Positions 17,312-32,206 of a stretch of 64,000 bases of DNA are shown here, in pieces; position 1 is the stretch's first letter, and every line of letters starts with the position of its first letter. Source of the stretch: a virus (Duplodnaviria; Caudoviricetes); the IMG/VR virus record IMGVR_UViG_3300022242_000023, positions 1 to 64,000 of that record; one strand, given 5' to 3'. The position numbers and the translations under genes were made by a program. The notes beneath the pieces are model-generated. The model did no database searches, had not been told where the DNA came from, and worked only from the letters and a program-made list of their open reading frames with translations.

Positions 17312-17615
17312 TATGGAAAAAGCTCTCGTAAGTGGCATCATCTACACTGTAAGAAATGATGATAATAGTAATCAAGTACTATTTTTTGATGAGAATGAAT
17401 ATGTAAGAATTCTCTACAAAAAAGAGGGGGAAGAACCTAGTGAGGTATTAGAGTTCTTTACTCATCCAGATGTTGAATTAGATTTTAAATATGATGAAGA
17501 AGACATTCTTTTCTCTAAAAAAAGAGAAGAATCCATTATTCAAATGATGAAATCTGAAGACAACAACACCAAATTATTGGCAACAAAATTGATTCAAGTA
17601 AAAGAACATAATTAA
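17304..17615 (+). CDS. hypothetical protein with C-terminal S-x-D helical motif
   Basis: IIQMMKSEDNNTKLLATKLI. Confidence 0.75.
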   Translation: MSNMEKALVSGIIYTVRNDDNSNQVLFFDENEYVRILYKKEGEEPSEVLEFFTHPDVELDFKYDEEDILFSKKREESIIQMMKSEDNNTKLLATKLIQVKEHN

Positions 17616-17616
17616 G

Positions 17617-19557
17617 ATGAAAATATACGATATTGAAACCTATATAGATAGTACTGTAATAGTATTTAAAGAAGTAGGGGGAAAATTATATGATGTATTT
17701 GTGGATTCACATTTAGATTATACTAATTTAAAAATCCCTAAATGTACCATACATCCTTTAAAGGAGGTAGGTAAATATGTAGAAAAAGACCCAAAATTAA
17801 TAGGTTTTAATAATCAATATTTTGACAATCCTATTTTAGAAAAGATTATTAGAGGTATGAATAGCTCTGAGGATATTTACAAGTATTCTCAGAGCATTAT
17901 TAAATCTAAAAACAGATTTTATCTGGATTTTAGAGATCATCATTTACACTTCAAATATCTGGATTTATTAAAAATAAATCACTATGATAATCCTGCTAGA
18001 GCAACAAGTTTAAAAAAGTTAGAATTTAATTACAGAAAAAAGAGAATAGCAGATTTACCATTTGGACATGAAACTAAATTAACTAAACTAATTCAATTAG
18101 AAGATTTAATCAGATATTGCTGTTATGACGTAGATGTCACAGAAGACTGTTTTTTAAATACTAAAGAAGCCATATCTTTAAGGGAGACTTTATGTTCTAT
18201 ATATCCTGGAACCAATTTCATGAACTTTTCCAATAGTAAAATTGGAGAAGAACTCAACTTAAGAGATTATTGTAATAGTACAGGAAGAACTCCTTCTGAA
18301 GTAAAAGAAAGTAAAAAAATAGATACTAATATTAAAATAGCGTTTAAAGACTGTATTCCAGAATTAGTAGAGTTTAAGACTGAACAATTACAAAATTTTC
18401 TTATAAGTTTGAAATCTAAAGTAGTACGTTCTACTAAAGAATTTAAAGAAAAAATAGAATTTTATGGAACTATTTATACTTTTGGGCAGGGAGGTCTTCA
18501 TTCAGAAGATCCTCCTAGAATATTTAGAAGTTCTGATAAAATGATATTGAAAGACGCAGATATATCTGGTCAGTATCCAACAGAAATAATTAAAAGAGGT
18601 CTATACCCTAAACATTTATCTGTAGAATGGTCAAAAAATGCTGAAAAGAAATATTTAGAAAGGATTCATGTACATAAACCTAATAGTAAAACTGATCCTA
18701 AAGCTAAAGCTCAGTCTGATGCAATAAAAGAACAACTTAATGCAGGCTTATATGGCAAAACTAATTCTGAGTACTCTTGGCAATATGATCCTGTAGTTAC
18801 AATGAAAACCACTCTAGGATGTCAAACTACAATGATGATGTTAATAGAAGATCTTGAACTAAGTGGTATACGTGTGCTATCTGTTAATACAGATGGTATA
18901 GTATGTTATTTTGAAAGATCTAAATTAGATACTTATTATGACATTTTAGAAAAATGGAAAGAAAAAGTTGGTAACAGTACTTTAGGAGATTTTGAATTTA
19001 CAGATTATGAGTTATTAGCGCAACTATCAGTAAATGATTATATAGCAAAATCTACTAAGGGAGATATTAAAAGGAAAGGTAGCTTTTTAACATATGAAGA
19101 TATTAAATCTGGGATGTGGCATAAAGATGCTTCTGGAATGATAATACCTACATCATTAGAAAAGTATTTTATAAATGGAATTCCTGTAGAAGAAACTATT
19201 AATAATTGCAATGACATTTTTGAGTTTTGTTATGGTTCTAAAAAACAAAAAGCAGCTAAAAAAGGTAATTTCAAATGGTTGATTTCAGAAACTCAAGATT
19301 CTGGTATAATTACTAGTTATTTAAGTGAAGATAGATTTATTAGATATTATATGGGAGGTAAAAGTACTATAAATAAATTATATGAAGATTGGGAAATTAA
19401 AAACCTTCCTACTAAAGGTAATCCTGTTACTGTAGCTCAATATTTAAAAAGATCAGAAATAGTAAGACCAGGAGAAGTTATTAGTCCTTATAAGGATTTG
19501 AATAAAACATTTTATATACAAGAAGCTTTAGAAATCATAAATCAAATAGAAAAATGA
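17617..19557 (+). CDS. polB: DNA polymerase, family B
   Basis: Exonuclease YDIETY and YCCYDV; polymerase motifs DISGQYP, KEQLNAGLYGK and NTDG. Confidence 0.95.
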   Translation: MKIYDIETYIDSTVIVFKEVGGKLYDVFVDSHLDYTNLKIPKCTIHPLKEVGKYVEKDPKLIGFNNQYFDNPILEKIIRGMNSSEDIYKYSQSIIKSKNRFYLDFRDHHLHFKYLDLLKINHYDNPARATSLKKLEFNYRKKRIADLPFGHETKLTKLIQLEDLIRYCCYDVDVTEDCFLNTKEAISLRETLCSIYPGTNFMNFSNSKIGEELNLRDYCNSTGRTPSEVKESKKIDTNIKIAFKDCIPELVEFKTEQLQNFLISLKSKVVRSTKEFKEKIEFYGTIYTFGQGGLHSEDPPRIFRSSDKMILKDADISGQYPTEIIKRGLYPKHLSVEWSKNAEKKYLERIHVHKPNSKTDPKAKAQSDAIKEQLNAGLYGKTNSEYSWQYDPVVTMKTTLGCQTTMMMLIEDLELSGIRVLSVNTDGIVCYFERSKLDTYYDILEKWKEKVGNSTLGDFEFTDYELLAQLSVNDYIAKSTKGDIKRKGSFLTYEDIKSGMWHKDASGMIIPTSLEKYFINGIPVEETINNCNDIFEFCYGSKKQKAAKKGNFKWLISETQDSGIITSYLSEDRFIRYYMGGKSTINKLYEDWEIKNLPTKGNPVTVAQYLKRSEIVRPGEVISPYKDLNKTFYIQEALEIINQIEK

Positions 19558-20267
19558 AAAATATTCCAAAACAAGTGCTTACAATTGAAAACTTAATGTA
19601 TGACATATCAAACTTTAAAGAGGATATAGATTGTATGAAAAAATCAATTACAGAGATTAAACATGATATAAAATATAGATTAGAACAACTTAAAGAAGAG
19701 CAAAAGAGGATTCTAATTCGTAAATCAAAATGTAAAGAAAACTTAAAAAAATTAAAAGATATTTCAAAACAATTTGATTTTTTTAAACATTTCCATAATT
19801 ATGATATACAAGATCATTATTTATGTAAAATAGACAATAAATATTTTATAGGTAAAGTAATTCGTGATAATTTTTTAAATGTAAAGTTAATAGAATTTGA
19901 ATATTCTGGTACAAAATTTCGTATTTTTAACAACACAAAATTAGATGAAATCATTTTTAAATTCTTAACAGCTAATGATCATTACAGTACTAACTTTATA
20001 TTTTTAGGTATGGAATTTGTAATAAAATTTAGAACAAATTCGTATTATGCAAAATGTGTTACTGAAGAGCTTTATCTAGGAGATGGTGTTCAATATCTAC
20101 ATCATTCTGTTATAAAATACGTAAATTTGAAAGATTTGGATATTGTATCAATTGATAATTTTGTAGAATTAGGAAACAGTAAAGATCCAGAATCTGTAGC
20201 TTTATTTAAAGAATTGTGTAAAAATTACATGAAAGAAAATGGAACTAGAAAGAATAGCAAAAATTGA
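19554..20267 (+). CDS. coiled-coil protein with C-terminal S-x-D motif (paralog of the next gene)
   Basis: YLHHSVIKYVNLKDLDI...GNSKDPESVALFKELC. Confidence 0.75.
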   Translation: MKNIPKQVLTIENLMYDISNFKEDIDCMKKSITEIKHDIKYRLEQLKEEQKRILIRKSKCKENLKKLKDISKQFDFFKHFHNYDIQDHYLCKIDNKYFIGKVIRDNFLNVKLIEFEYSGTKFRIFNNTKLDEIIFKFLTANDHYSTNFIFLGMEFVIKFRTNSYYAKCVTEELYLGDGVQYLHHSVIKYVNLKDLDIVSIDNFVELGNSKDPESVALFKELCKNYMKENGTRKNSKN

Positions 20268-20883
20268 AGCATTAATAAATGTTAAACATAATTTAGAATA
20301 TAAAAAAACAAGTTATTCAAGAAATATTCTATATTATAATGATAAAATTAAATCACTAGAAATAGATTTAGAACGAACAGAGAATGAACTATCCTCAATA
20401 GAAGATGATCTTGTAAAACAAGATTTATTGATTTCAAAATGGACAAATTTAAAAAATCATAGTAAAAACTTTGTAAAATTTAATCTGGGAGATGAATATT
20501 TAATCAAATATCATCGTAGATATACTTTTACAAAAGTTGTCAAAGATGATGTACTAAATGTTAACACAATAAGGATTAGTAAAAGATTACTATTTGCAAA
20601 TGAAAAATTAGATAATGAAATATATAAAAATTTAATAAGTAAACCATATTCAAAAGGAGTTAAACTTTTTGGTATATCATATAGACTTGATGTAAAAAAA
20701 AATGAATTAGTTATTCAAGAGGCAGATCGTTATTCTAAATATGTTCATCATTCTTATGTAAAATATATAAACTTAAAAGACCTAGATATTCCATCTATAG
20801 AAAACTTTAAGCAATTAGCAAAATCAAAAGATCCAGAAACAAAAGCCTTGTTTAGAGCATTATGTGAAAGTTATTTATCATGA
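20239..20883 (+). CDS. coiled-coil protein with C-terminal S-x-D motif
   Basis: YVHHSYVKYINLKDLDI...AKSKDPETKALFRALC. Confidence 0.75.
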   Translation: MELERIAKIEALINVKHNLEYKKTSYSRNILYYNDKIKSLEIDLERTENELSSIEDDLVKQDLLISKWTNLKNHSKNFVKFNLGDEYLIKYHRRYTFTKVVKDDVLNVNTIRISKRLLFANEKLDNEIYKNLISKPYSKGVKLFGISYRLDVKKNELVIQEADRYSKYVHHSYVKYINLKDLDIPSIENFKQLAKSKDPETKALFRALCESYLS

Positions 20884-21251
20884 TAATTATTTTTATATTT
20901 GTAAAATCCATAGATATACCAAAAATATATTGTATATTTGATAACCCTAGTGGTGAAACAACGACTATAACAGTTTATCAAGAATATTCCACAAAAGATC
21001 TCTTCACTTTGAGTAAAATGACAGATTTTGAAAACAATATTGTTTGCACTTCTGTTGTTAAAGGAGCATTTGATAAAATTAAGTTAGATATAGAAATTGG
21101 TGATAATATAAAATTAATGAATATATATCAAATGCTATCATCCAATGATAAAAATGCTTCAGAATTAGGAATAATTACTTTAATAGAAGAACTTTTAAAT
21201 TACCAGTTATGCAAAGAGAAGAAGAACAACAGCCAATTATTGATGAAATAA
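20880..21251 (+). CDS. hypothetical protein with C-terminal S-x-D motif
   Basis: IYQMLSSNDKNASELGIITL. Confidence 0.65.
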   Translation: MIIIFIFVKSIDIPKIYCIFDNPSGETTTITVYQEYSTKDLFTLSKMTDFENNIVCTSVVKGAFDKIKLDIEIGDNIKLMNIYQMLSSNDKNASELGIITLIEELLNYQLCKEKKNNSQLLMK

Positions 21252-22345
21252 TCAAACAAGATTATCATGGAATAATATATTTGCCCACAGGAACTGGTAA
21301 AACTAGAATTTTAATTGAAGCTTTAAAACAATCTTCATTTAAATCTATTTTATGGGTTTGTGCCACAGAACAAGCTAGAGATGTTACACTAGAAAAAGAG
21401 TTTAAAATTTGGAAAGCTACAAAGTTGTTTAAGAAAGTTACTGCAATATGTTGGCAATCATTAGGTAAACATAAAGGTAAATATGATATTGTAATACTTG
21501 ATGAAATACAAAGGATCACACCAAGAAATTCATTATATTTCATAAACAATAATTGTAAAATTATTGGTGCAACAGGTTCAGAACCTAGAGAGCAAATAAA
21601 GCAAGACATTTTTAAACAATTAAATTTAGATGTAATCTGGAGATTACACATAGACAATGCTATAGAAAAATCTTTAATAGCAGAATATTTCATTGATATT
21701 GTATATGTTGACATTGATCCAATAACTAAGTATGAAGTAAAAGGTAATAAGGGATCTTTTTATAAAACGGAAAAAGAAAGTTATAATTGGTATAGTTACA
21801 AAATAGAACAATTAAAAGATAAGGGTAATTATACAGATGCAAAAAAGCTACAACTATCAAGGGCAAGATTCATTTATAATTCAAAAACAAAACTCAGGGC
21901 ATCGCAATTATTAATGAAAAAATTCTCAGATAATAGAGTTATTTCATTTTCTAAATCTACTGATATAGCAAACATTCTTTCAAAGAATCCTTATCATTCT
22001 AAATTAAAAAAAGAAGATCGCAAACTCAATTATGATAAGTTCAATTCTAAAAAAGAAAATCATATATCAACAGTAGAAGCAGCTAATACTAGTCTAAATT
22101 TTACAGAAATAGAAATAGCATTTATACAACAGTTAGATTCTAATCCTGGAAACTTTTTACAAAGGATTGGTAGAGCTCTTAGATTTAGAGAAAACTATAC
22201 TGCAAAAATTGTACTCTTATGTTTAAGAGGTACTCAAGATGAAGTATGGGTCAATAGCTGTATTGAATCTCTGAACTCAGAAAAAATTAATATGTATAAT
22301 TTTAAAGATTACATTCATGACAAAAGAATTAATACAGTTAATTAA
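21209..22345 (+). CDS. superfamily 2 helicase
   Basis: PTGTGKT, ILDEIQ, GATGS and QRIGRALR. Confidence 0.9.
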   Translation: MQREEEQQPIIDEIIKQDYHGIIYLPTGTGKTRILIEALKQSSFKSILWVCATEQARDVTLEKEFKIWKATKLFKKVTAICWQSLGKHKGKYDIVILDEIQRITPRNSLYFINNNCKIIGATGSEPREQIKQDIFKQLNLDVIWRLHIDNAIEKSLIAEYFIDIVYVDIDPITKYEVKGNKGSFYKTEKESYNWYSYKIEQLKDKGNYTDAKKLQLSRARFIYNSKTKLRASQLLMKKFSDNRVISFSKSTDIANILSKNPYHSKLKKEDRKLNYDKFNSKKENHISTVEAANTSLNFTEIEIAFIQQLDSNPGNFLQRIGRALRFRENYTAKIVLLCLRGTQDEVWVNSCIESLNSEKINMYNFKDYIHDKRINTVN

Positions 22346-22775
22346 ACTTATCCAGACACAAGTAGTTAGTATACTACTTGTGAATGGATATGTGGAATTG
22401 ATAGACAAGCAAGGGAAGTATTTATTTAATAACATAAGAATAACTACATCTGGTAAAACAACTATTAAAGAGACTAATCTTGTTACAGATTCAGAAGTTC
22501 AAACTTACATGAACTTATGGCCAAAAGGTTATAGATCTAATTTAAAAGCTGTAAAGGCTAAGATGGAGAGATTCATGTTAAATAATAAATGTACTTTAAA
22601 ACAGATTATGCTAGCAGCAGAAACTTATATAAGAGATAAAGGTACTCCATATCATGGGAAAGCTGACTATTTCTTTTATAAGGAAGAAAATGGTGTAGAA
22701 ACTTCTAGATGTGAAGAATATTTAGAAGATGAAAATTTTGAAGAAGAAATAGACTATAGAAGACAGGTGACATAA
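22317..22775 (+). CDS. hypothetical replication-associated protein upstream of the DnaB-like helicase
   Basis: 152 aa; KADYFFYK; stop/start overlap with the helicase gene. Confidence 0.65.
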   Translation: MTKELIQLIKLIQTQVVSILLVNGYVELIDKQGKYLFNNIRITTSGKTTIKETNLVTDSEVQTYMNLWPKGYRSNLKAVKAKMERFMLNNKCTLKQIMLAAETYIRDKGTPYHGKADYFFYKEENGVETSRCEEYLEDENFEEEIDYRRQVT

Positions 22776-23854
22776 TGGGATTTGTAGAAAATTTAGATAA
22801 AGGTATAGAAAAGGGTCTAAAAGGACTCAATAAGGGGATACCAGGTGGATTACCAAGATTTGATAAGAAAATCTTTAATATCCAACCTGGAAAACAAGTT
22901 TCAATAGTAGGCGCACCAAAATCTGGGAAAACATACTTCATGTTATGGAGATATGTATTTAGACCTTGGATAGCAGGTGAGAGAAATATCAAATGGATTT
23001 TATATTCATTAGAAGTAGATTCTCAACAAGTGGCGGCAAGATTAGCGGGTATGTTTATATATCATTATTATAAACGTAAAATTGATCCTAATAAACTATT
23101 AGGATTTGGGGAAGATCAGTTATCAGACGTAGAACAGGAAATTTATAAAAAAGTCAGAGAAGAACATTTAGTACCTCTTCAAAAGCAATTGAAAATAATT
23201 GAAGATAAGAATGACAGTAATCCTACTGCTATATATAAAGCAGCATTAACATATGCATCAAAACATGGAACTTTTGAAGAAGAAGAATATTCTACTACTG
23301 ATGAAAAAAATCAACCAATTAAAAAAAAGAGAAGAGTAGGTTATACACCTAATGACCCAGATGAAAAAATCTTTATAATGATAGATACTCTGGGCTTAAT
23401 GAAGAGAGAAAGAAATTTCTCTAAAAAAGAAAACATGGATAAATGGTTAGATGAATATGCAATAGAGTTAAGAAATCTATTGAGATACACTATAATCAAT
23501 TGCCATCATTTAAATAGAAACTTAAGTGCACCAGAAAGAAAGAAATTATCAGGAGAAGATTTACAACCAGAGCTGGAAGATATCAAAGATACTTCAGCAA
23601 TAGGTGAATCTTCAGACATGGTAATTGGTATTTTTAATCCTAACGTGCACGCAGAAATAAAGGTTCATCAAGGCTATCATGTTCCAAAATTTAATGGATA
23701 TTATAGAAGTATTCACGTAATGGCTTCTAGGTATACTCCATCACCAATAAATTCAGCTTTATTATTTGATTTTGAAACTGGTGCATGGCAAGAACTACCT
23801 CCGCCAACAGATACTACTGCTTTGGAACCATTTTATAAAATGTTAAATAGTTAA
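22775..23854 (+). CDS. replicative helicase, DnaB-like (SF4)
   Basis: GAPKSGKT, MIDTL, HHLNR and IKDTSAIGESSDMVIGI. Confidence 0.85.
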   Translation: MGFVENLDKGIEKGLKGLNKGIPGGLPRFDKKIFNIQPGKQVSIVGAPKSGKTYFMLWRYVFRPWIAGERNIKWILYSLEVDSQQVAARLAGMFIYHYYKRKIDPNKLLGFGEDQLSDVEQEIYKKVREEHLVPLQKQLKIIEDKNDSNPTAIYKAALTYASKHGTFEEEEYSTTDEKNQPIKKKRRVGYTPNDPDEKIFIMIDTLGLMKRERNFSKKENMDKWLDEYAIELRNLLRYTIINCHHLNRNLSAPERKKLSGEDLQPELEDIKDTSAIGESSDMVIGIFNPNVHAEIKVHQGYHVPKFNGYYRSIHVMASRYTPSPINSALLFDFETGAWQELPPPTDTTALEPFYKMLNS

Positions 23855-23856
23855 AA

Positions 23857-24531
23857 ATGACAAAAATAAGATCAGTTTGCATAGATACTTTGACTGCTTT
23901 ACAGATAGCAGAATATATGAGAGAAAGTAAAAAACCTAACCACGACAAATGGATGGATTATGGAAAGTCTATATATAATTTTATAGATGATCTTCAAGCT
24001 TTAGGTTTTGAATCAATTTTAATACTTGGAGAACCTGGTACAGGTAAAAGTTCTGGAATGAGGACTTTACTACCAAATACTAATATTTGGTATAATGCAG
24101 ATAATAAAAATCCTGTATGGGCAGGAGGAACTGCAGAATATGGTAAGAAGACAAATCCTAGAAATAATTACCATATTATCCCTAAAAGTTATGAAGAAAT
24201 TATATCTCATATCTCTGGAGGAATAAAAGCAGGTGTTTTTGAAGAAGAAAGATTTGCATTTCTTACAGGCCATGTAGAAACATTTAGGTCTGGTACTGAA
24301 AACAAAGAAAGACTGAAATTACTAGGTAATGTGGCTACTAAAATGCAGTTAGAAGGACGCTTAGAGACAGTAATGTACTCAAAAGTAGAAAAAGAGGATG
24401 GTAAAATTAAGTATTTACTAGAGAGCCAAAATAATGGTTATAATACAGCAAGAAGCCCTATGAATGTATTTGAACCAACAATAGAGAATGATTATCAACA
24501 TATAATAGATAAGCTGTTAGCAGGTTTTTAA
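23857..24531 (+). CDS. Sak4/AAA_24-like ATPase with permuted motif order
   Basis: GEPGTGKS, CIDT, TGHVE, ARSP and IEND; the Walker B segment is at the N-terminus. Confidence 0.8.
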   Translation: MTKIRSVCIDTLTALQIAEYMRESKKPNHDKWMDYGKSIYNFIDDLQALGFESILILGEPGTGKSSGMRTLLPNTNIWYNADNKNPVWAGGTAEYGKKTNPRNNYHIIPKSYEEIISHISGGIKAGVFEEERFAFLTGHVETFRSGTENKERLKLLGNVATKMQLEGRLETVMYSKVEKEDGKIKYLLESQNNGYNTARSPMNVFEPTIENDYQHIIDKLLAGF

Positions 24532-24576
24532 CAAAAGATTAACAAATAATAATTAGAGATAGTTAATTTTTATTTG

Positions 24577-24584
24577 TATATTTG
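24577..24584 (+). promoter_or_regulatory. Bacteroidota -7 promoter box
   Basis: TATATTTG in the intergenic gap 32 nt before the ATG at 24616. Confidence 0.55.
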
Positions 24585-24615
24585 TATTATTGTTTAACAA
24601 CTAAATTAAGTAAAG

Positions 24616-25221
24616 ATGAGTATGTACGGTTTATCAAATGTTGAGTCTAATAGAACTCCATTTCCTCTCTCAAACGGTGTAACTAACGTAGAATTAAAAT
24701 CTTGTTCATATGTGGATGGTGGAAGCTGGGAAGCTATAGATTTTGTTTATGGGAGGACTACTGATGAAGGAGAGAGTATTTTAAAGGACAGGATGTTTGC
24801 CATAAATGAGGCAAATATTTCTCCAAGTTCATTTGTAGAAAATGACACTAAGGAAGCTGCTATAGATAGGGAAGCTAAAAGGTTAAATACCAGGCTTAAG
24901 CACATTGCTACAAAGTTCAGTATTAGCCCTAACACCTTATTATCTATTACTGGTAAAAATTTTAGAGAATATGCGGAAGCATACTGTAAAATTGTAAACG
25001 CACATTGTAAAGGAGTAAAACTTTACTGTAAAACAGTAAAAGATGCTTCTGGATATGTGAAAGTAGCTAAATACCCTAATTTTTTACAAAGGATGGATTC
25101 TGGAGAGTGTGAATTAAAATACACAGAGAGGGAGTTAGCAGCTAATGTATCTAATAGCCCTACAAATGGTGCTGTTAGAGAAACTAGGAGTGTAGATTCT
25201 GCAGATTCGTGGACTAAATAA
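24616..25221 (+). CDS. putative single-stranded DNA-binding protein
   Basis: Position after the Sak4-like gene, beta-rich body, flexible tail ending ADSWTK; assignment is from context. Confidence 0.5.
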   Translation: MSMYGLSNVESNRTPFPLSNGVTNVELKSCSYVDGGSWEAIDFVYGRTTDEGESILKDRMFAINEANISPSSFVENDTKEAAIDREAKRLNTRLKHIATKFSISPNTLLSITGKNFREYAEAYCKIVNAHCKGVKLYCKTVKDASGYVKVAKYPNFLQRMDSGECELKYTERELAANVSNSPTNGAVRETRSVDSADSWTK

Positions 25222-25247
25222 GTAAGATAATTTAGTTTGTTTTATTT

Positions 25248-25282
25248 GAGAGAGAGGTAGGAAACTACCTCTCTCTTTTTTT
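25248..25282 (+). terminator. intrinsic terminator
   Basis: gagagagaggtag-gaaa-ctacctctctctt followed by a T run. Confidence 0.9.
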
Positions 25283-25290
25283 ACCTAAAA

Positions 25291-25602
25291 TTGAATAAAA
25301 TGATACAAAAAACGGAACAAGTATACAAAACTCTAATTGTAAAATTAGGAGATAGTTTAAAACTGATAAGATGCGATGATTTCTTACAAAAAGAAAAGGA
25401 ATATAAGGATATACCATTTCCTCCAGAAATAACTGATGAAGTTCATTTAAATTGGTTAGAAAATAACTCCCCAATATTAAATATCAGAAGAAGTTTCTAT
25501 GATATGATAGATTCTGAAGATGAGGATACTCAAAATGTAGCAAAAGATTGTATTCACGGTATGCTTAAACAACATTTAACAGATTATGTATTCAATATCT
25601 AA
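25291..25602 (+). CDS. hypothetical protein with C-terminal S-x-D motif
   Basis: FYDMIDSEDEDTQNVAKDCI. Confidence 0.7.
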   Translation: MNKMIQKTEQVYKTLIVKLGDSLKLIRCDDFLQKEKEYKDIPFPPEITDEVHLNWLENNSPILNIRRSFYDMIDSEDEDTQNVAKDCIHGMLKQHLTDYVFNI

Positions 25603-26560
25603 TTCACAAATTACTGATCTAAAAGATCTAAATACTTTCATATCTGATGAAGAAATATTATTAAAATATTTTGGAGAATATGAACTTGACAAACATTATC
25701 TATGCCCATTTGTGGAAGAAACTGTACCATCCTTTATTATATCTTATTATAATAACAGGTTAGTATGGAGAAGATTTGGTTTATATGATAGACCTATGAG
25801 CGCAATAGATTTTGTCATGGTAAAGTTCAATTTAAGTTTTAAAGACGCTATAAATAAATGTTTTAAAGAAATTAATGTAGATAATACTGAAATTTTAAAG
25901 ACTATTACTATACCTGTAGAAACTTCTAAGACATGTGGTATAAATTATGTAGAAGATTGGTATCCTTGGGAACTAGATTATTGGAAAGATTATCATTTTG
26001 ATAAAAAAATATTAAAAAAATACGAAATATATCCTTGTACAGGATATTGGATAAATCAATTTAGGTGGCATTATTCTAAAAAGAATGATCCTTTATTTGT
26101 ATATATGCATGGATTAAATTCCTGGACAGGTTATAGACCCTTAGCCAAAAATAAGTTAGATAAATTTAGGAAACATAATATTAAAAATCACATTATGGGA
26201 ATGGAAAATCTTCCTAACGAGGGAGATTTGCTTTTCATTACAAAATCTTATAAAGATTTGATAACTTTAAATTTAATAGGTTTAAATGCTATTGCAGTAC
26301 ATACTGAAAGAGTTTACATAGATCATAATATTATTACCAACTTAAAAAAACGCTTTAAACACATATATGTGGTATTTGATAATGATAAGACAGGTATTGA
26401 TGCAAGTATGTTTTTTACTAAGGAATATGGGTTAAATTATTATAACATTCCTTCAAATTGTATAGGATGTAAAGACCCTGCTGATCTAAGTAAAATCCAA
26501 GGATTAGATGCATTAGAGAAATCTATTAAAGAAAAATTAAAAAGAGATAATATATTATGA
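25586..26560 (+). CDS. DNA primase (DnaG-like TOPRIM)
   Basis: Degenerate Zn-ribbon CPF..E..PSF; FITKSYKD, FDNDKTG and KDPAD. Confidence 0.85.
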   Translation: MYSISNSQITDLKDLNTFISDEEILLKYFGEYELDKHYLCPFVEETVPSFIISYYNNRLVWRRFGLYDRPMSAIDFVMVKFNLSFKDAINKCFKEINVDNTEILKTITIPVETSKTCGINYVEDWYPWELDYWKDYHFDKKILKKYEIYPCTGYWINQFRWHYSKKNDPLFVYMHGLNSWTGYRPLAKNKLDKFRKHNIKNHIMGMENLPNEGDLLFITKSYKDLITLNLIGLNAIAVHTERVYIDHNIITNLKKRFKHIYVVFDNDKTGIDASMFFTKEYGLNYYNIPSNCIGCKDPADLSKIQGLDALEKSIKEKLKRDNIL

Positions 26561-26949
26561 AAATATTAAAAAATTCAGATATAAAGAAATTAGAAATTAA
26601 AGATGCTTTATTAACTGATGTGTATTTTATTAGAGGACAATCTAGAACTAGATTCTTAGGTATATTAGGTCAAGTTAATAGATCATATTCGTTAAAGGGT
26701 ATAGGATATATGCATCTGAATAATACTTATGAATTTTATGATAATATAGATATAGTAAATCACATGAAATTACGTTGTTTTTTAAATTTATCAAAAGTAC
26801 AACGAGAAGGTGTTTTACCCTATAAAGATATTCAAGAACTTATATCAATGTATACTTCACCAGATCAAGGTATAAGAGATGTATTGGAAGAATGCTTAAT
26901 TCAAATTTTCAGAGAAAAATATAAAGGTAGATATGATTTCATATACTAG
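26557..26949 (+). CDS. hypothetical protein with C-terminal S-x-D motif
   Basis: LISMYTSPDQGIRDVLEECL. Confidence 0.7.
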   Translation: MKILKNSDIKKLEIKDALLTDVYFIRGQSRTRFLGILGQVNRSYSLKGIGYMHLNNTYEFYDNIDIVNHMKLRCFLNLSKVQREGVLPYKDIQELISMYTSPDQGIRDVLEECLIQIFREKYKGRYDFIY

Positions 26950-27586
26950 TTTATTACAAAAATGGTATCCGTATTTTGTAAAATGGAAAATGTTAGGAAT
27001 ATTAGATGATGTAATAGATAGATTAAATATCTTATATAAAGATTGTACAGTATATCCTGAAAAACAAAAAGTGTTTAGAATATTTCAAGAAATTCCTCCT
27101 GAAAATGTTAAAGTAGTATTTTTAGGTCAAGATCCTTATCCAGGATACTACAAAGGATCTCCTTCAGCATGTGGGAGAGCTTTTGCTACTGAAAATGGAT
27201 ATTTAAATCCCAGCTTAAAAAATATGTTTAAAGAACTTGCTGATGATGTAGGTGTTAATTTAAATATTCCAATGGATTATTCATTACAAACTTGGGTAGA
27301 TAGTGGAGTATTTCTTTTAAATACAGCCTTAACTGTAGAAATGGGTATGCCAGGAGCACATTTAAAACTTTGGGAAAACTTTTCAAAAGAATTTATAACG
27401 AATTTTTCAAAAGATTTTAATGTAGTTTGGGTATTATTAGGAGGGAAAGCTCAACAATGGGATAAGTATATTTTAAACGGAGAAGTTATTACCGCTGCTC
27501 ATCCTTCACCTTTAGCTGGAGGTAAATTCTTTGGGTCTAAAATATTTTCAAAAATAAACAATTTTAAAGAAATAAAATGGCAATAA
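26933..27586 (+). CDS. ung: uracil-DNA glycosylase, family 1
   Basis: GQDPY, LLNTALTV and HPSPL. Confidence 0.95.
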   Translation: MISYTSLLQKWYPYFVKWKMLGILDDVIDRLNILYKDCTVYPEKQKVFRIFQEIPPENVKVVFLGQDPYPGYYKGSPSACGRAFATENGYLNPSLKNMFKELADDVGVNLNIPMDYSLQTWVDSGVFLLNTALTVEMGMPGAHLKLWENFSKEFITNFSKDFNVVWVLLGGKAQQWDKYILNGEVITAAHPSPLAGGKFFGSKIFSKINNFKEIKWQ

Positions 27587-28950
27587 TAAAATACGAGATA
27601 GATATATATGAAGATCTATTGGTAACTGCAAAAAAGTTAATGTGGAAACAGCCTTTAATGGGATTTTTCCTAGCAACATTACATAAGAAAGTTATATACA
27701 AAGGGGATCCAGAAGAAAAGGATATAAAAACTGCTGCAGTAGGAAAATCTAAAGGAGACTTAAATTATAGTCTATATGTTAATGCAGAATTCTGGAAAGA
27801 TTTAACAGACTTACAAAAACAAGATGTTTTATTACATGAGTTAAATCACATATGTTATTTTCATCCAACAATGTCTAAGTCTTTTTCTCAAAAAGAACTC
27901 TTTAATATAGCAGCTGATATAGAAATCAATCAACATCTGCCAAATCTTCCAGATAATGATATGCCTTTAGACAAGTATGTGGAATGGATAGAAGCTCACA
28001 AAAAAGAAATCCAAGAAGGTAAAATTGTAGCTCCTGCAAGATTTTGCAGATTAGAAGATTATGGTTTCAAAAAAGAAGCCGATGACTTCAAAGGTACTAG
28101 ATATTACTATGATAGACTAATGGCCATAATAAATGATCAGAAAAATCAATCTCCAATGGCTAAAAGTTTAAGGCAAATGGTAGCTTCTATGGGTGAAGAA
28201 AATAGTCCATACCCTTGCTCTCATAATACATGGAAGAATTTTGAAGAAGATAGTGATATAGAAAGTGAATTAATAGACGAAAATGTTAAAAGTCTTCTTA
28301 AAAGAATCATGTTAGAAAATGAACATCAAAGATCTCAACTTATTGGTAGTTTACCAGGATATTTGAGAAATTTGATAGAAGATCTTCTTAAAGAAAGACC
28401 ACCTATATTTAACTGGAAATTATATGTAAGAAGATTTGTTGCAAAATCTATAGATTCTTATGTAAGAACTACAAGAAGTAAACCTAATAAAAGATTAGAT
28501 GAAGAAATGCCCACTATTAAAATTATTGAAAAATATTGTTTATTAATGGGTGTAGATACATCAGGTAGCATGAGTAATGAAGATATAGCTCAGTGTTTTA
28601 CTGAAATACATCATGTATATAAAACAGGTAATACTGTATTGGTGGCAGAATGTGATGCTGCATTAGATAAAAACAATGATGTATACAAATACACTGGTAA
28701 GTATCCTACAAAAAGATTAGGTTTAAGTGGAGGAGGAGGTACAAACATGGACCCTGTATTAGCATACGCTAATGAAAATGTTAATTCACTAACATGTTTA
28801 ATACACATAACTGATGGTTATATACCAATTCCAAAAGTTAAATGTAAAGTTCCTACTTTAATAATAATTACACCAGATGGTGCAAATCCTGAAGATTTGA
28901 TTAAAGGAGGTTTGAAATATCCTGTAATTAAAATGAATAGAGATTGTTAA
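27577..28950 (+). CDS. metallopeptidase-vWA protein (DUF2201-like)
   Basis: HELNH zincin motif; MIDAS VDTSGSM, GGGGT and ITDG. Confidence 0.85.
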   Translation: MAIIKYEIDIYEDLLVTAKKLMWKQPLMGFFLATLHKKVIYKGDPEEKDIKTAAVGKSKGDLNYSLYVNAEFWKDLTDLQKQDVLLHELNHICYFHPTMSKSFSQKELFNIAADIEINQHLPNLPDNDMPLDKYVEWIEAHKKEIQEGKIVAPARFCRLEDYGFKKEADDFKGTRYYYDRLMAIINDQKNQSPMAKSLRQMVASMGEENSPYPCSHNTWKNFEEDSDIESELIDENVKSLLKRIMLENEHQRSQLIGSLPGYLRNLIEDLLKERPPIFNWKLYVRRFVAKSIDSYVRTTRSKPNKRLDEEMPTIKIIEKYCLLMGVDTSGSMSNEDIAQCFTEIHHVYKTGNTVLVAECDAALDKNNDVYKYTGKYPTKRLGLSGGGGTNMDPVLAYANENVNSLTCLIHITDGYIPIPKVKCKVPTLIIITPDGANPEDLIKGGLKYPVIKMNRDC

Positions 28951-29279
28951 TGAAACTAGATCATTACGAAAGAGGTGATATTATTTTATTTTATGACGAT
29001 GAATGTAACTCATTAATATATTATTATGACAAGGTAACAAAAGATAAATCTAATGAATTATTATTGCATTTAATAGATTTTAAAGACAAGAGTTCAGTTT
29101 CATTTAAGAAATGTTACAAATATGATGATTTATTCATAAATAGTTTAAATCTTACATATTTAATTAATAATAATTATATACAAGAAAATATAATAAGTTT
29201 AGTATCATCACCAGATAAAGAGATGCAAAGATTAGGAGTAGAAATATTAAAAAATTCAATAAACAAATATAATATTTAA
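28944..29279 (+). CDS. hypothetical protein with C-terminal S-x-D motif
   Basis: IISLVSSPDKEMQRLGVEIL. Confidence 0.7.
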   Translation: MLMKLDHYERGDIILFYDDECNSLIYYYDKVTKDKSNELLLHLIDFKDKSSVSFKKCYKYDDLFINSLNLTYLINNNYIQENIISLVSSPDKEMQRLGVEILKNSINKYNI

Positions 29280-29284
29280 AATTT

Positions 29285-30529
29285 ATGGCAAGTAAAGTTA
29301 AACAAGAAAAAGTATTTTTGAAACCTTCAGAGGTTAAGTTAAAAGTATTAGAATTTATAGAATCTAATACTCAATTAGAAAAAAGAGGATTATTAAAAAA
29401 TGCTTTATCTTTTGTAGGAGAACCTGGTATTGCTAAAACATCATCTGTTTTGCAAGTATGCCAAGAGAATAACATAGGAATAGAAAAAGTCAATATGGCG
29501 AATATTGATGACCTTGGAGAAATCACAGGATATCCTATGAAAGAATATGAAATGAAAAAGAATAGTGATATCCAATGGGCTAATGATAAAAATCATGAAA
29601 GCTTTTTGAGACTTGGTTATCTTGATACAGGTTCTACAAGAACAGGATATGCAGAACCTAAATGGGTTAATAGTCTTAGGAATTATGAAAAAAGTGTATT
29701 ATTACTTGATGATTCTTTGAGAAGTCAACCTAGGTTTATCAATGCCTTAATGGATCTTATTCAGAGAGGTGAGTATTATGGTTGGAAATTACCAAAAGGA
29801 TGCACTGTCATTATGACAAATAATCCTTCTGATGGAGATTTTCAGGTAGCTCAAGAAGATAGTGCTCATATTAGTAGATATTTCACTTTCCATGTAAAAT
29901 ATTGTGAAAAATCTTGGGCAGAACAAGCTCAAAAAGAAAATCTTCATGGAGCGTTTATAAACTTTATATTGAAACACCACTCAGAGTTATTTGCTTTACA
30001 AGATGAAAAGAACCCTTCTTTAGGGATGATGTCCATGCCTAGACAATGGAGTATGTTATTTTCATCTATAAATCATTTACCTGAATTTACTTCTCCGAAA
30101 AGTCAACAGATTATTTTACAAAATGGGAAGGCAATTTTACCTTCAAATTTAGTACAAATTTTCACAACTTTTTTACATGCTAAAGAATGGGATATTGTTG
30201 AACCAGATGAAATCTTCAATAATAAAATTAAAGACGAAGAAGTAGTGTCAATGTTAAAAAAGAGTGTGGGAGAACCAAAAGCTGGTACATTCAGAAATGA
30301 TGTAGCATCTATTTTGTCAATGCGTATTACTAACTATTTAGTACATCTTGCTAGTACAAATCCTATTGACTCTTTCTTGACAGGAAGGTTAAAACTGATA
30401 ATGGAAAACAAAATCTTAGGGTCAGATTTGGATTTCAAATTGATCAAAGATATGTATTCTAGAAATCGTGATAAGTTTAAAGGTTTATTATCTGAAAAGT
30501 TTTTCAGAGATCAAATAATTCAAGGATAA
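29285..30529 (+). CDS. MoxR-like AAA+ ATPase (partner of the DUF2201-like protein)
   Basis: GEPGIAKT, LLLDD, MTNNP, HISRY and PRQW. Confidence 0.85.
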   Translation: MASKVKQEKVFLKPSEVKLKVLEFIESNTQLEKRGLLKNALSFVGEPGIAKTSSVLQVCQENNIGIEKVNMANIDDLGEITGYPMKEYEMKKNSDIQWANDKNHESFLRLGYLDTGSTRTGYAEPKWVNSLRNYEKSVLLLDDSLRSQPRFINALMDLIQRGEYYGWKLPKGCTVIMTNNPSDGDFQVAQEDSAHISRYFTFHVKYCEKSWAEQAQKENLHGAFINFILKHHSELFALQDEKNPSLGMMSMPRQWSMLFSSINHLPEFTSPKSQQIILQNGKAILPSNLVQIFTTFLHAKEWDIVEPDEIFNNKIKDEEVVSMLKKSVGEPKAGTFRNDVASILSMRITNYLVHLASTNPIDSFLTGRLKLIMENKILGSDLDFKLIKDMYSRNRDKFKGLLSEKFFRDQIIQG

Positions 30530-30530
30530 T

Positions 30531-31553
30531 ATGGTACAGGAATTAGACGTTAAAGTTTATAATGGTTATGGTATTTCAAATGATGTAGAAAGTGTAAAGT
30601 TAATCAGAAAATCTGAATTAAAAACAAAACTGGATAGTTTGCAAATAGTTAAAACTATTAAAGATAAAAGTAACGTATTTTTTCTAGATAATGTTGTATT
30701 CCCTAGGCAAACGCTTAGGGAATATGGCAAATCTAGAGGTATAAATATAGTTAGAAAAGTAGAAACAGCAGATTATCTTGTTATTAAAAATAATGATATA
30801 AATAACTACATTAAATCATATAGACAATATGGTTTATTTAAAAATATACATACGGGTGAATTACTTTTAAATCTTTCTTGGGATCAACAGGCTACTCATA
30901 GAATATTCAATGATTATAGTATGATAGCTAATGATTATTGTAATATAATTGATTCATTAGTTGATGATATCAATAATTTATTTACAATAAATAAACCTAT
31001 TATTGATCAAGAAAGTTTAAATAATCAATGTTTAAATAGTACAATAATTGATTACAAAAATTATCTCAATTATGTTTCAATGCTAAATAGCACTGATCAG
31101 ATTGTAAAGGATATGGCTATAAGACTGATATCAATGTGTAACAGGGATGCCTCAGAATTTTATATAGCGTGCTTATATAATAAATTTAAACAAGATTTTT
31201 TTAATAGTAAAGAATGGAATTCTGTAAATTTGAGATCTTTTAGAATATATGTAGAAAGTAAAAGTTGGGGCCGTACTAGAATGGATAATGAACTAAGTGT
31301 ATTAAGATTTTTTATTGATGGAAACTATAAATTTAAAATAGATTCTGTATTTTTTCATAAAATGGTAGAAGAAGATTTTAATAAGATTTCAAACGGCATT
31401 TTAAGAATCTTAGATAAAGTAGCTGAAACTGAAATGGTATTAAAATATAATATTAAACCAAGCATTAAAATAATAGAATTTGAAAATGAAGAACCAAGTG
31501 GAACAATCAAAAGAATCAGTGAAAAAAATTCCCAGATCGGGAAAGAAGAATAG
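30531..31553 (+). CDS. hypothetical protein with internal S-x-D motif
   Basis: 340 aa; YVSMLNSTDQIVKDMAIRLI. Confidence 0.75.
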   Translation: MVQELDVKVYNGYGISNDVESVKLIRKSELKTKLDSLQIVKTIKDKSNVFFLDNVVFPRQTLREYGKSRGINIVRKVETADYLVIKNNDINNYIKSYRQYGLFKNIHTGELLLNLSWDQQATHRIFNDYSMIANDYCNIIDSLVDDINNLFTINKPIIDQESLNNQCLNSTIIDYKNYLNYVSMLNSTDQIVKDMAIRLISMCNRDASEFYIACLYNKFKQDFFNSKEWNSVNLRSFRIYVESKSWGRTRMDNELSVLRFFIDGNYKFKIDSVFFHKMVEEDFNKISNGILRILDKVAETEMVLKYNIKPSIKIIEFENEEPSGTIKRISEKNSQIGKEE

Positions 31554-31941
31554 GACTAAAGGACATGGTTATGAAATTAAAATATCTAACATGTTAAAAG
31601 ATCTAGGTTTAGTTAAAACCAAAACATCAAGGGCTGCATCAAAATTGTATGATGATTGCGGTATTGATCATTGGGGTGCAATACTTCCTACTGGTGATTT
31701 AATATTAACACAGTGTAAATCTGGATATAAAAATTCTAGACCAAAAGCAGATGTAGAGTTTAAAAACCAAATAGAGAAAATGAAAACTCATTTTCCCAAA
31801 GGTAGTAAGGAATTAGATTCTAATAATATGCAAATATTATTTCATAAAATAGATGATTATAGACCTGAAAATCATTTAGTAACTATGAAATATGATGATT
31901 TTGTTAAACTGTTAAAAACTTTCATAGATGCACATAATTAA
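31480..31941 (+). CDS. Holliday junction resolvase, PD-(D/E)xK
   Basis: NRTKGHGYE...GID...QCKSG. Confidence 0.75.
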   Translation: MKMKNQVEQSKESVKKIPRSGKKNRTKGHGYEIKISNMLKDLGLVKTKTSRAASKLYDDCGIDHWGAILPTGDLILTQCKSGYKNSRPKADVEFKNQIEKMKTHFPKGSKELDSNNMQILFHKIDDYRPENHLVTMKYDDFVKLLKTFIDAHN

Positions 31942-32206
31942 AAGACTGTATAAATACTGGAATTTGAGATCAGGTGTTATTGTAATGGTAACTCCAGAAG
32001 AAGAGTTATATTTTATTGAAATTAAAGGGGTATTTTTATTTAAACTAATTTCTTTAATATTTCTAAAAGGCGATTATTCAGATTACAAATTTGCATATAC
32101 AGATAATTGGGCCCGTATAAATAGATTTTGTGAATATAAGAATTCAGAGGATCCAGATGTACAAGAAATGTTTAAAAACTGCATAAAACATGAACTAGAT
32201 GATTAG
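31928..32206 (+). CDS. hypothetical protein with C-terminal S-x-D motif
   Basis: FCEYKNSEDPDVQEMFKNCI. Confidence 0.7.
   Translation: MHIIKRLYKYWNLRSGVIVMVTPEEELYFIEIKGVFLFKLISLIFLKGDYSDYKFAYTDNWARINRFCEYKNSEDPDVQEMFKNCIKHELDD

Follow-up and report, generated by a model that had tools for sequence, protein, structure and literature searches.

Introduction

MoxR-type pairs of an AAA+ ATPase and a vWA (von Willebrand factor A) protein bind their targets through a MIDAS (metal ion-dependent adhesion site) and an acidic side chain on the target, as in CbbQO with Rubisco (Asp82/Glu75) and Rea1 with Rsa4 (PMC4660213). In jumbo phages, pairs of a zincin-vWA protein and a MoxR ATPase have been described and proposed to be chaperone and (peptidolytic) processing systems (PMC7824862). 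Here we analyze a 64,000-nucleotide stretch (hereafter the window) of the IMG/VR virus record IMGVR_UViG_3300022242_000023 (Caudoviricetes), which forms the start of the genome of an uncultivated phage, a single contig of 86,303 bp with ~27% GC, and in which a motif centered on S-x-D recurs in nine proteins encoded among the replication genes, together with a zincin-vWA/AAA+ pair. We know of no MoxR-type AAA+/vWA system with a shared recognition module on many clients. Shared docking elements on unrelated proteins are otherwise well known, e.g. clamp-binding and PIP motifs, dockerins, the PRANC/F-box of poxvirus ankyrin proteins and the encapsulation peptides of microcompartments.

The locus shares with the described MoxR-type systems and their clients or adaptors (CbbQO-Rubisco, the Rea1 MIDAS with Rsa4/Ytm1, NorQD, RavA-ViaA, ATV p618/p892 and the jumbo-phage zincin-vWA/MoxR pairs) the co-encoding of an AAA+ ATPase with a vWA protein whose MIDAS is intact. 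The targets of the known systems present to the MIDAS an acidic residue that is exposed (PMC4660213), while the corresponding contact of the module Asp is hypothetical here. The phage fusion of zincin and vWA is as previously described (PMC7824862), and other phages with the same pair are without the module. With the shared docking tags the locus has in common one short conserved element at the terminus of many co-encoded unrelated proteins, as expected for one hub; it differs from them in that the element is a folded two-helix unit of 30-40 residues instead of a linear peptide of at most 10, and there is no sequence similarity.

Nine copies of a two-helix module

A sequence-only reading of the window had pointed out the motif in nine open reading frames (ORFs), and all nine peptides are indeed present in the named ORFs, all on the plus strand (Table 1; proteins are denoted by the first nucleotide of their ORF). 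The pattern as written there, h-x-x-[ML]-x-x-S-x-D-x5-[LMV]-x3-[LCI], fits seven of the nine strictly, and is missed at one position in 20880 (T at the last position) and in 31928 (Y for [ML]). Eight copies are C-terminal, as had been stated, and end 6-23 residues from the stop codon, while the ninth occupies residues 181-199 of the 340-residue protein 30531. Three of the ORFs had been begun at upstream TTG codons; these we replace by the likely ATG starts at 17313, 25300 and 28950 (database versions P0009, P0005 and P0006).

The description of the nine proteins as otherwise unlike is true of their N-terminal parts, and has to be amended for 19554 and 20239, which are full-length paralogs (31% identity, E 2e-30) and the sole BLAST-related pair, leaving eight unlike groups. 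Beyond this pair, the N-terminal parts with the motif removed are unrelated, with an hhalign probability below 1% for all pairs, and full-length paralogy of all nine was rejected on these grounds. The tandem paralogs 19554 and 20239 are followed by 20880, giving three tagged genes in a row, and the small tagged genes run with their 3' ends up to or into the start of the gene that follows.

Seven strict and nine relaxed matches were observed, compared to 0.10 and 0.23 expected from per-protein shuffles of the whole window, placing the motif clearly above background. As an empirical background, ORFs from 80 related low-GC phage loci (410,829 residues) gave four strict matches, none of them within 25 residues of a C-terminus, i.e. 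~1 pattern per 100,000 residues in real related phage proteins. The enrichment is thereby more than 70-fold over both shuffles and real phage proteins. The absence of the motif elsewhere in the genome could also be substantiated. The rest of this genome gave no strict match (22,441 residues outside the module), and a hidden Markov model (HMM) of the nine tags gave 33-43 bits for the copies themselves and 7.7 bits for the next segment in a six-frame translation of the 86,303 bp. When each copy in turn was left out of the model, seven of the nine were still the best non-training match; 26557 was missed, and the 19554/20239 pair was weak if both were omitted.

The conserved Ser is encoded by TCT, TCA, TCC, AGT and AGC in the nine copies, which belong to both families of Ser codons, and what is under selection is hence the protein and not the DNA. 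Together with the divergence of the paralogs 19554 and 20239, which differ at most synonymous sites, this ruled out a repeat at the DNA level. The motif is a real two-helix protein module of 30-40 residues, shared by nine proteins.

Relation to two protein families

In the loci of a family here called T430, the nine-tag HMM matched (at up to 26.6 bits, E 3e-6 in 1 Mb) another family, of 131-150 residues, typically ~135, with the module at the N-terminus, here called T137. T430 was reached from 30531, which aligns over its full length, motif included, with a 419-residue protein in another locus (L029:12150-13406; phmmer E 7.5e-8); through this protein 174 relatives were found in IMG/VR. T430 proteins have ~430 residues with the module in a central position, and 30531 is the member in the window (T430 HMM E 1.4e-7). 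These are two widespread protein families, not named before, that we define here. Searches of T137 and T430 gave no Pfam, PHROG or meaningful PDB match, and none in cultured phages (T430 against the cultured-phage collection).

Among 65 distinct T430 sequences M184, S187, D189, A196, N204 and S208 are invariant (30531 numbering for M184, S187 and D189), with the consensus Q-L-x-x-M-F-x-S-S-D-x-D-N-H-I-L-A-M-E-I-M-A-N-S-N-Y, and in 50 T137 sequences the same is true of M, S, D and N of M-x-x-S-x-D-x-x-N-H. The module M, S and D are in all invariant in more than 110 sequences of the two families, even though members are only 18-46% identical. In the nine tags this signature is retained as S and D in all copies and M or L in eight. 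Comparison of the two families with hhalign gave a probability of 96.6% (E 6e-10) over 106 columns, by which T137 is a stand-alone copy of the central domain of T430.

Against T137 the tags themselves gave an hhalign probability of 77-79% (E 2e-5) in an alignment of 38 columns. With a T137 HMM that contains no window sequence, the eight highest-ranking of 956 genome segments included six tagged ORFs out of the nine, each aligned across S-x-D (hypergeometric P ~2e-12), while the individual small proteins score weakly (E 0.005-0.6). The motif, with its two helices and the S-x-D turn between them, corresponds to ~38 residues at the start of a helical domain that is ~105 residues long; among the nine proteins only 30531 has this domain in full, the eight small ones carrying a fragment. 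Two earlier notions had to be given up in consequence, i.e. that the module is intrinsically a C-terminal tag, since its relatives have it N-terminally (T137) or internally (T430) as part of a larger domain, and that it is confined to the present phage, since it is also found in T137 and T430 proteins of uncultivated crAss-like contigs.

Some further features of T430 are worth recording. Relatives in loci L097-L160 (e.g. L128:7947-9263) have a long acidic tail with the consensus end D-D-D-F-E-W-F, recalling the C-termini of SSB and T7 gp2.5, which likewise are acidic tails with an aromatic end; the window member, 30531-31553, is without this tail. The N-terminal domain of the family (in the window 30531-30860, residues 1-110) has an invariant P-R and A-D and a V-F-F-L...I-V-R...A-D-Y-L-V-I pattern. 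A BRCT-like nature of this domain was suggested by a BRCT-containing Atlas cluster (score 0.84), and was set aside as Pfam and PDB profile searches gave no confirmation.

Gene neighborhood of the zincin-vWA/AAA+ pair

In the window, 28950-29279 lies between the genes of the zincin-vWA protein and the AAA+ ATPase, and 30531 adjoins the latter on its 3' side. Related loci show a similar picture. The order T137, zincin-vWA, AAA+ and T430 on one strand was found in 63 out of 81 related loci; T430 follows the pair in all 79 loci that hold it, in 78 of them directly after the AAA+ gene. In these phages the domain was found only in the two genes bracketing the pair, and the module is genomically linked to it. 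Homologs of the vWA protein keep the MIDAS residues (DxSxS, T and D) and the zincin HExxH in 61-63 of 63 sequences. The AAA+ protein and its homologs match AAA_5/AAA_3 below the curated cut-offs. This neighborhood would link the module to the AAA+/vWA machine, much as had been guessed at the outset.

A search of Crassvirales, proposed by the sequence-only reading, did recover relatives of the module, although their spread is narrow. In 80 loci anchored on the primase, 77 had none of the four cassette families, one had all four, and two short contigs had the pair only. One or two module-bearing ORFs, never more, were found in the other loci, in a comparison covering the neighborhoods of the cassette, while the present genome has nine.

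A few observations concern the pair itself. In L136:5562-7784 the AAA+ gene is split into pieces of 141 and 251 residues with ORFs of 249 and 45 residues between them, and two or three AAA+ pieces occur in several other loci, which may reflect an inserted mobile gene or intein-like element. The zincin-vWA protein (27577-28950) belongs to phrog_1314, named 'HNH endonuclease' in PHROGs, and this name is repeated in RefSeq records of N4-like and Bacillus phages. Since HExxH and a complete MIDAS are present in the sequence, the endonuclease label looks like a propagated annotation error. In the N4-like Acinetobacter phage nACB1 (L161) and Stenotrophomonas phage Piffle (L163), an AAA+ ATPase adjoins the zincin-vWA gene in the early or middle region, with two ATPases and a 137-residue ORF directly 5' of the vWA gene in nACB1. 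The S-x-D module was not found in the proteins neighboring the pair in these two phages.

Distribution of the small proteins

Searching 1.84 billion representative proteins with the tag profile (HMMER) gave 11 matches, all from the lineage of the window. The T137 and T430 relatives were missed here because they are weaker and fall below significance in so large a database. The 11 matches comprise the nine proteins, in their own or sister-strain versions, and two more. One of these, P0010 (75 residues), is a sister-strain form of 20239 in which an in-frame deletion has spared the module and 30 residues at the N-terminus; the other, P0011 (219 residues), shares 41% identity with 20239 and carries the module C-terminally. 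Within the sub-family of 19554, 20239 and P0011 the module is 49-62% identical, compared to 29-34% for the remainder of the proteins, and the module region of 30531 is 84% identical to that of a homolog 73% identical overall. The module is the most constrained part of its carriers.

Word-based searches for homologs of 19554 and 30531 returned only near-identical or 73%-identical relatives, and scans for related loci in viral and metagenome contigs with single queries (the primase, the DnaB-like helicase, P0011 and an alignment) returned nothing. The tag profile had no significant match in the 80 primase-anchored crAss-like loci, the best (16 bits) being a primase N-terminus without the Ser. 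The closest viral contig (L001), with a primase 51% identical to that of the window, has unrelated ORFs in the slot before this gene. As the database matches come only from this lineage and the tag was absent from the 80 primase loci, we regard the eight small proteins as lineage-specific, and the module as expanded in this lineage.

Predicted structure

Two helices are predicted with high confidence for the conserved region of 26-38 residues. AlphaFold (AF2) models of two of the proteins show a helix-turn-helix at a predicted local distance difference test score (pLDDT) of ~80-93, with S-x-D at the inter-helix turn in both. In the protein at 28944 (the upstream start of 28950) the helices are formed by residues 77-87 and 92-108 (pLDDT ~80), and in 19554 a strand and a loop are followed by helices 200-207 and 212-234 (pLDDT 91-93). 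Further parts of the 19554 model are an N-terminal helix of 70 residues and, in the middle, a beta-rich domain, for which Foldseek and VIA-align gave nothing significant; only coiled-coil matches were found for the model as a whole, plus non-significant OB/PUR-like rows. The folds nearest to the ESM Atlas model of the protein at 28944 are small beta-barrels (template modeling scores 0.44-0.51). A short linear motif of the clamp-binding or PIP-box type, i.e. at most 10 residues in a disordered tail, was considered and rejected, the conserved region being 26-38 residues long and predicted to be helical.

The suggestion that the module resembles a single HEAT-like helix-turn-helix agrees with the pattern and the predicted fold, and is not backed by any curated Arm/HEAT match or tandem repeat. 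With armadillo/HEAT repeats the module shares h-x-x-L-L-x-S-x-D-x-E-h-x-x-x-A-x-x-x-L-x-N in a helix, turn, helix arrangement. It differs in that those repeats form arrays while each protein here has one unit (no tandem array of ~40-residue repeats was found), and in the invariant M-x-x-S-x-D-x-[DE]-N-H, specific to the phage families T137 and T430. Among PDB sequences the tag profile best matched a designed armadillo protein (4hxt, E 2.8e-5, a whole-protein sum of six repeats that are each weak alone), followed by the HEAT repeats of Mot1 (3oc3/4wzs, E ~0.3). No family of Pfam, Arm and HEAT included, matched the nine proteins (E up to 1) or 25 T430 members (E up to 0.1), the nine had no match in PHROGs, and internal repeats were not detectable in T137. 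ARM/HEAT-like is in our view a fair description of the pattern; membership in these families is not demonstrated by it.

Genome setting and neighboring genes

The replication module spans 17.3-33 kb of the window. Besides the putative polymerase PolB, it encodes by profile match an SF2 helicase, a DnaB-like helicase, an AAA_24-type ATPase, a DnaG-type primase and a uracil-DNA glycosylase (UDG). Around the pair the gene order is 26557, UDG, zincin-vWA, 28950, AAA+ and 30531. An ORF at 31480-31941, which resembles a RusA-like Holliday-junction resolvase (phrog_244, E 8.5e-6), overlaps the 3' end of the 30531 gene by 74 bases and is read in a different frame. The protein encoded at 32812-33225 matches the N-terminal domain of dATP/dGTP diphosphohydrolase (PF18909, E 7e-17), a family known from phages in whose DNA adenine is replaced.

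Table 1. Module-bearing proteins, the zincin-vWA/AAA+ pair and PolB in the window. Core denotes the nucleotide positions of the module core.
Feature	Position	Strand	Details
Small tagged protein, 100 aa from ATG, directly 5' of PolB	17313..17615	+	Core 17535-17591; top match of the independent T137 profile
PolB	17617-19557		~30% identity to phage polymerases as sole evidence
Tagged protein, 237 aa; long N-terminal helix (residues 4-74), beta-rich domain, C-terminal module	19554..20267	+	Core 20160-20216
Tagged protein, 214 aa, full-length paralog of 19554	20239..20883	+	Core 20806-20862
Small tagged protein, 123 aa, overlaps start of SF2 helicase gene	20880..21251	+	Core 21123-21179
Small tagged protein, 100 aa from ATG, overlaps start of DnaG-type primase gene	25300..25602	+	Core 25495-25551
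Small tagged protein, 130 aa, overlaps start of UDG gene; weakest copy	26557..26949	+	Core 26839-26895
Zincin (HELNH) and vWA-like protein, intact MIDAS (DTSGS, T389, D413); candidate module partner	27577..28950	+	Pfam DUF2201_N, DUF2201
Small tagged protein, 109 aa from ATG, between vWA and AAA+ genes	28950..29279	+	Core 29190-29246
AAA+ ATPase paired with the vWA protein; candidate module partner	29285..30529	+	phrog_1297 ATPase, E 8e-27
T430-family protein, 340 aa, module internal, ancestral-type copy	30531..31553	+	Core 31071-31127; T430 HMM E 1.4e-7
Small tagged protein, 92 aa, overlaps start of next gene (32199)	31928..32206	+	Core 32126-32182

Possible functions of the module

The reading that we favor, tentatively and at somewhat short of an even chance, is that the module is a protein-protein docking element joining its carriers to one common partner, for which the zincin-vWA/AAA+ machine would be the best candidate. 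In this phage T430 is retained as 30531, and the two-helix piece has in addition been joined C-terminally to the eight small proteins of the lineage, whose genes are interleaved with PolB, the helicase, the primase, UDG and the AAA+ gene. The carriers may be clients, adaptors or substrates of a remodeling and proteolytic machine. As the known MoxR-type pairs bind their targets via the MIDAS and an acidic side chain, the invariant Asp of the inter-helix turn is one possible ligand of the MIDAS metal site; that the module docks, on which partner it does so and that the MIDAS is the point of contact are inferred. In its fullest version the proposal has a viral MoxR-like AAA+/vWA-zincin machine recognize its clients by the module, as by a handle, with the invariant Asp bound at the MIDAS; the eight accessory proteins near PolB, the helicase, the primase and UDG, as a set of replication-associated factors, could thereby be controlled by one remodeling and protease machine. 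We consider this version rather doubtful.

Several observations weigh against docking on the pair. Among the eight small tagged genes, six do not adjoin those of the vWA and AAA+ proteins, and have PolB, the helicase, the primase, UDG and an unknown gene as their neighbors. No module was found near the zincin-vWA/AAA+ genes of N4-like, Thermus and Bacillus jumbo phages, and the pair hence does not need the module in general. The linkage comes from one clade, so that the 81 loci are not independent and amount to a single evolutionary observation. Regarding the relationship itself, the tags gave a weak hhalign result (2.8%, E 0.016) when compared to T430 alone, and the small proteins end 6-23 residues after the core and are missing the Asn-His that follows the Asp in T137 and T430. 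Finally, S-x-D is also a structural N-cap at turns of the ARM/HEAT type, and its invariance could be partly structural, which weakens the MIDAS argument.

This last point also bears on a different explanation, possible though on the unlikely side, in which the module is a structural relic, i.e. the best-conserved folding core of a fast-evolving multigene family, or of one gene fragment captured repeatedly, with no shared partner. The tandem paralogs and the three consecutive tagged genes fit such a history, as do the eight small proteins without homologs outside the lineage, and the S-x-D of the module can act as a helix N-cap just as in ARM/HEAT repeats. Indeed, the lineage-specific expansion (nine copies compared to one or two), the tandem paralogs and the sister-strain deletion variant are all reminiscent of virus multigene families. 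Those families differ, however, in what is multiplied, as only a piece of ~38 residues is common here and the remainder is unrelated, i.e. the module has been multiplied and not the gene. Against a relic, the N-terminal parts are unlike even by profile comparison. Furthermore, the module is about twice as conserved as the remainder in the one clear paralog group and survives the in-frame deletion of P0010, and M, S and D are invariant across families of such low identity, which is more than an interchangeable N-cap would need.

We regard as unlikely a homotypic assembly, in which the module binds the same domain in other carriers, so that the small units stack on, or complete, the domain of 30531 or each other in pairs, with 30531 as a hub that would assemble accessory proteins around the replisome. 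T137 and T430 share the whole ~105-residue domain and are always co-encoded, and the partial domain of the small proteins may need a partner for stability. The resemblance to ARM/HEAT repeats, which stack, points the same way, and fragments of split designed armadillo proteins are known to assemble; this likeness is offset by the lack of both detectable internal repeats in T137 and a Pfam ARM/HEAT match. The long predicted N-terminal helix of 19554 and 20239 (residues 4-74), whose structural neighbors are mostly coiled coils, would suit scaffold proteins, and the acidic, FEWF-ending tail of the T430 relatives looks like a replisome-interaction tail. What homotypic binding leaves unexplained is why the two conserved carriers bracket the vWA/AAA+ pair.

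In a narrower form of docking to this machine, the module could be a degradation or processing tag, its carriers being substrates and not adaptors, to be unfolded and cleaved at a set time by the AAA+ ATPase together with the vWA-fused zincin. The conserved HExxH of the vWA partners and the position of the module near the C-terminus of eight proteins, where degrons often lie, are in line with this, and peptidolytic processing has been proposed for the zincin-vWA/MoxR pairs of jumbo phages (PMC7824862). In T137 and T430, however, the module is N-terminal or internal in a folded domain, unlike terminal degrons, and a cleavage-site pattern was not seen, and we consider such a tag very improbable. 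Chance, low-complexity composition or a translated DNA-level element such as a promoter or recombination site, to which the AT-rich genome (~27% GC) and the location of the copies just 5' of the following gene, a possible site also of promoters or ribosome-binding signals, might have pointed, is refuted by the codon and enrichment analyses above (seven to nine copies compared to 0.1-0.2 expected and to ~1 per 100,000 residues in real related proteins, Ser codons of both the TCN and AGY families, and paralogs differing at most synonymous sites), as well as by the recovery of the copies with the independent external T137 profile.

A shared interaction module spread over many proteins is known in kind; what appears to be previously undescribed are the two phage families T137 and T430. 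The locus shows that the accessory repertoire of a phage can grow by the spread of a domain fragment instead of by duplication of whole genes. AAA+/vWA pairs are common in phages and in cells, with targets that are mostly unknown, and for these the module offers a concrete and cheap hypothesis, i.e. binding of module to MIDAS or of module to module. Should the module turn out to be a recognition handle for docking on the zincin-vWA/AAA+ machine, it would be the first defined client-recognition module of a viral AAA+/vWA system, with a client repertoire built by tagging.

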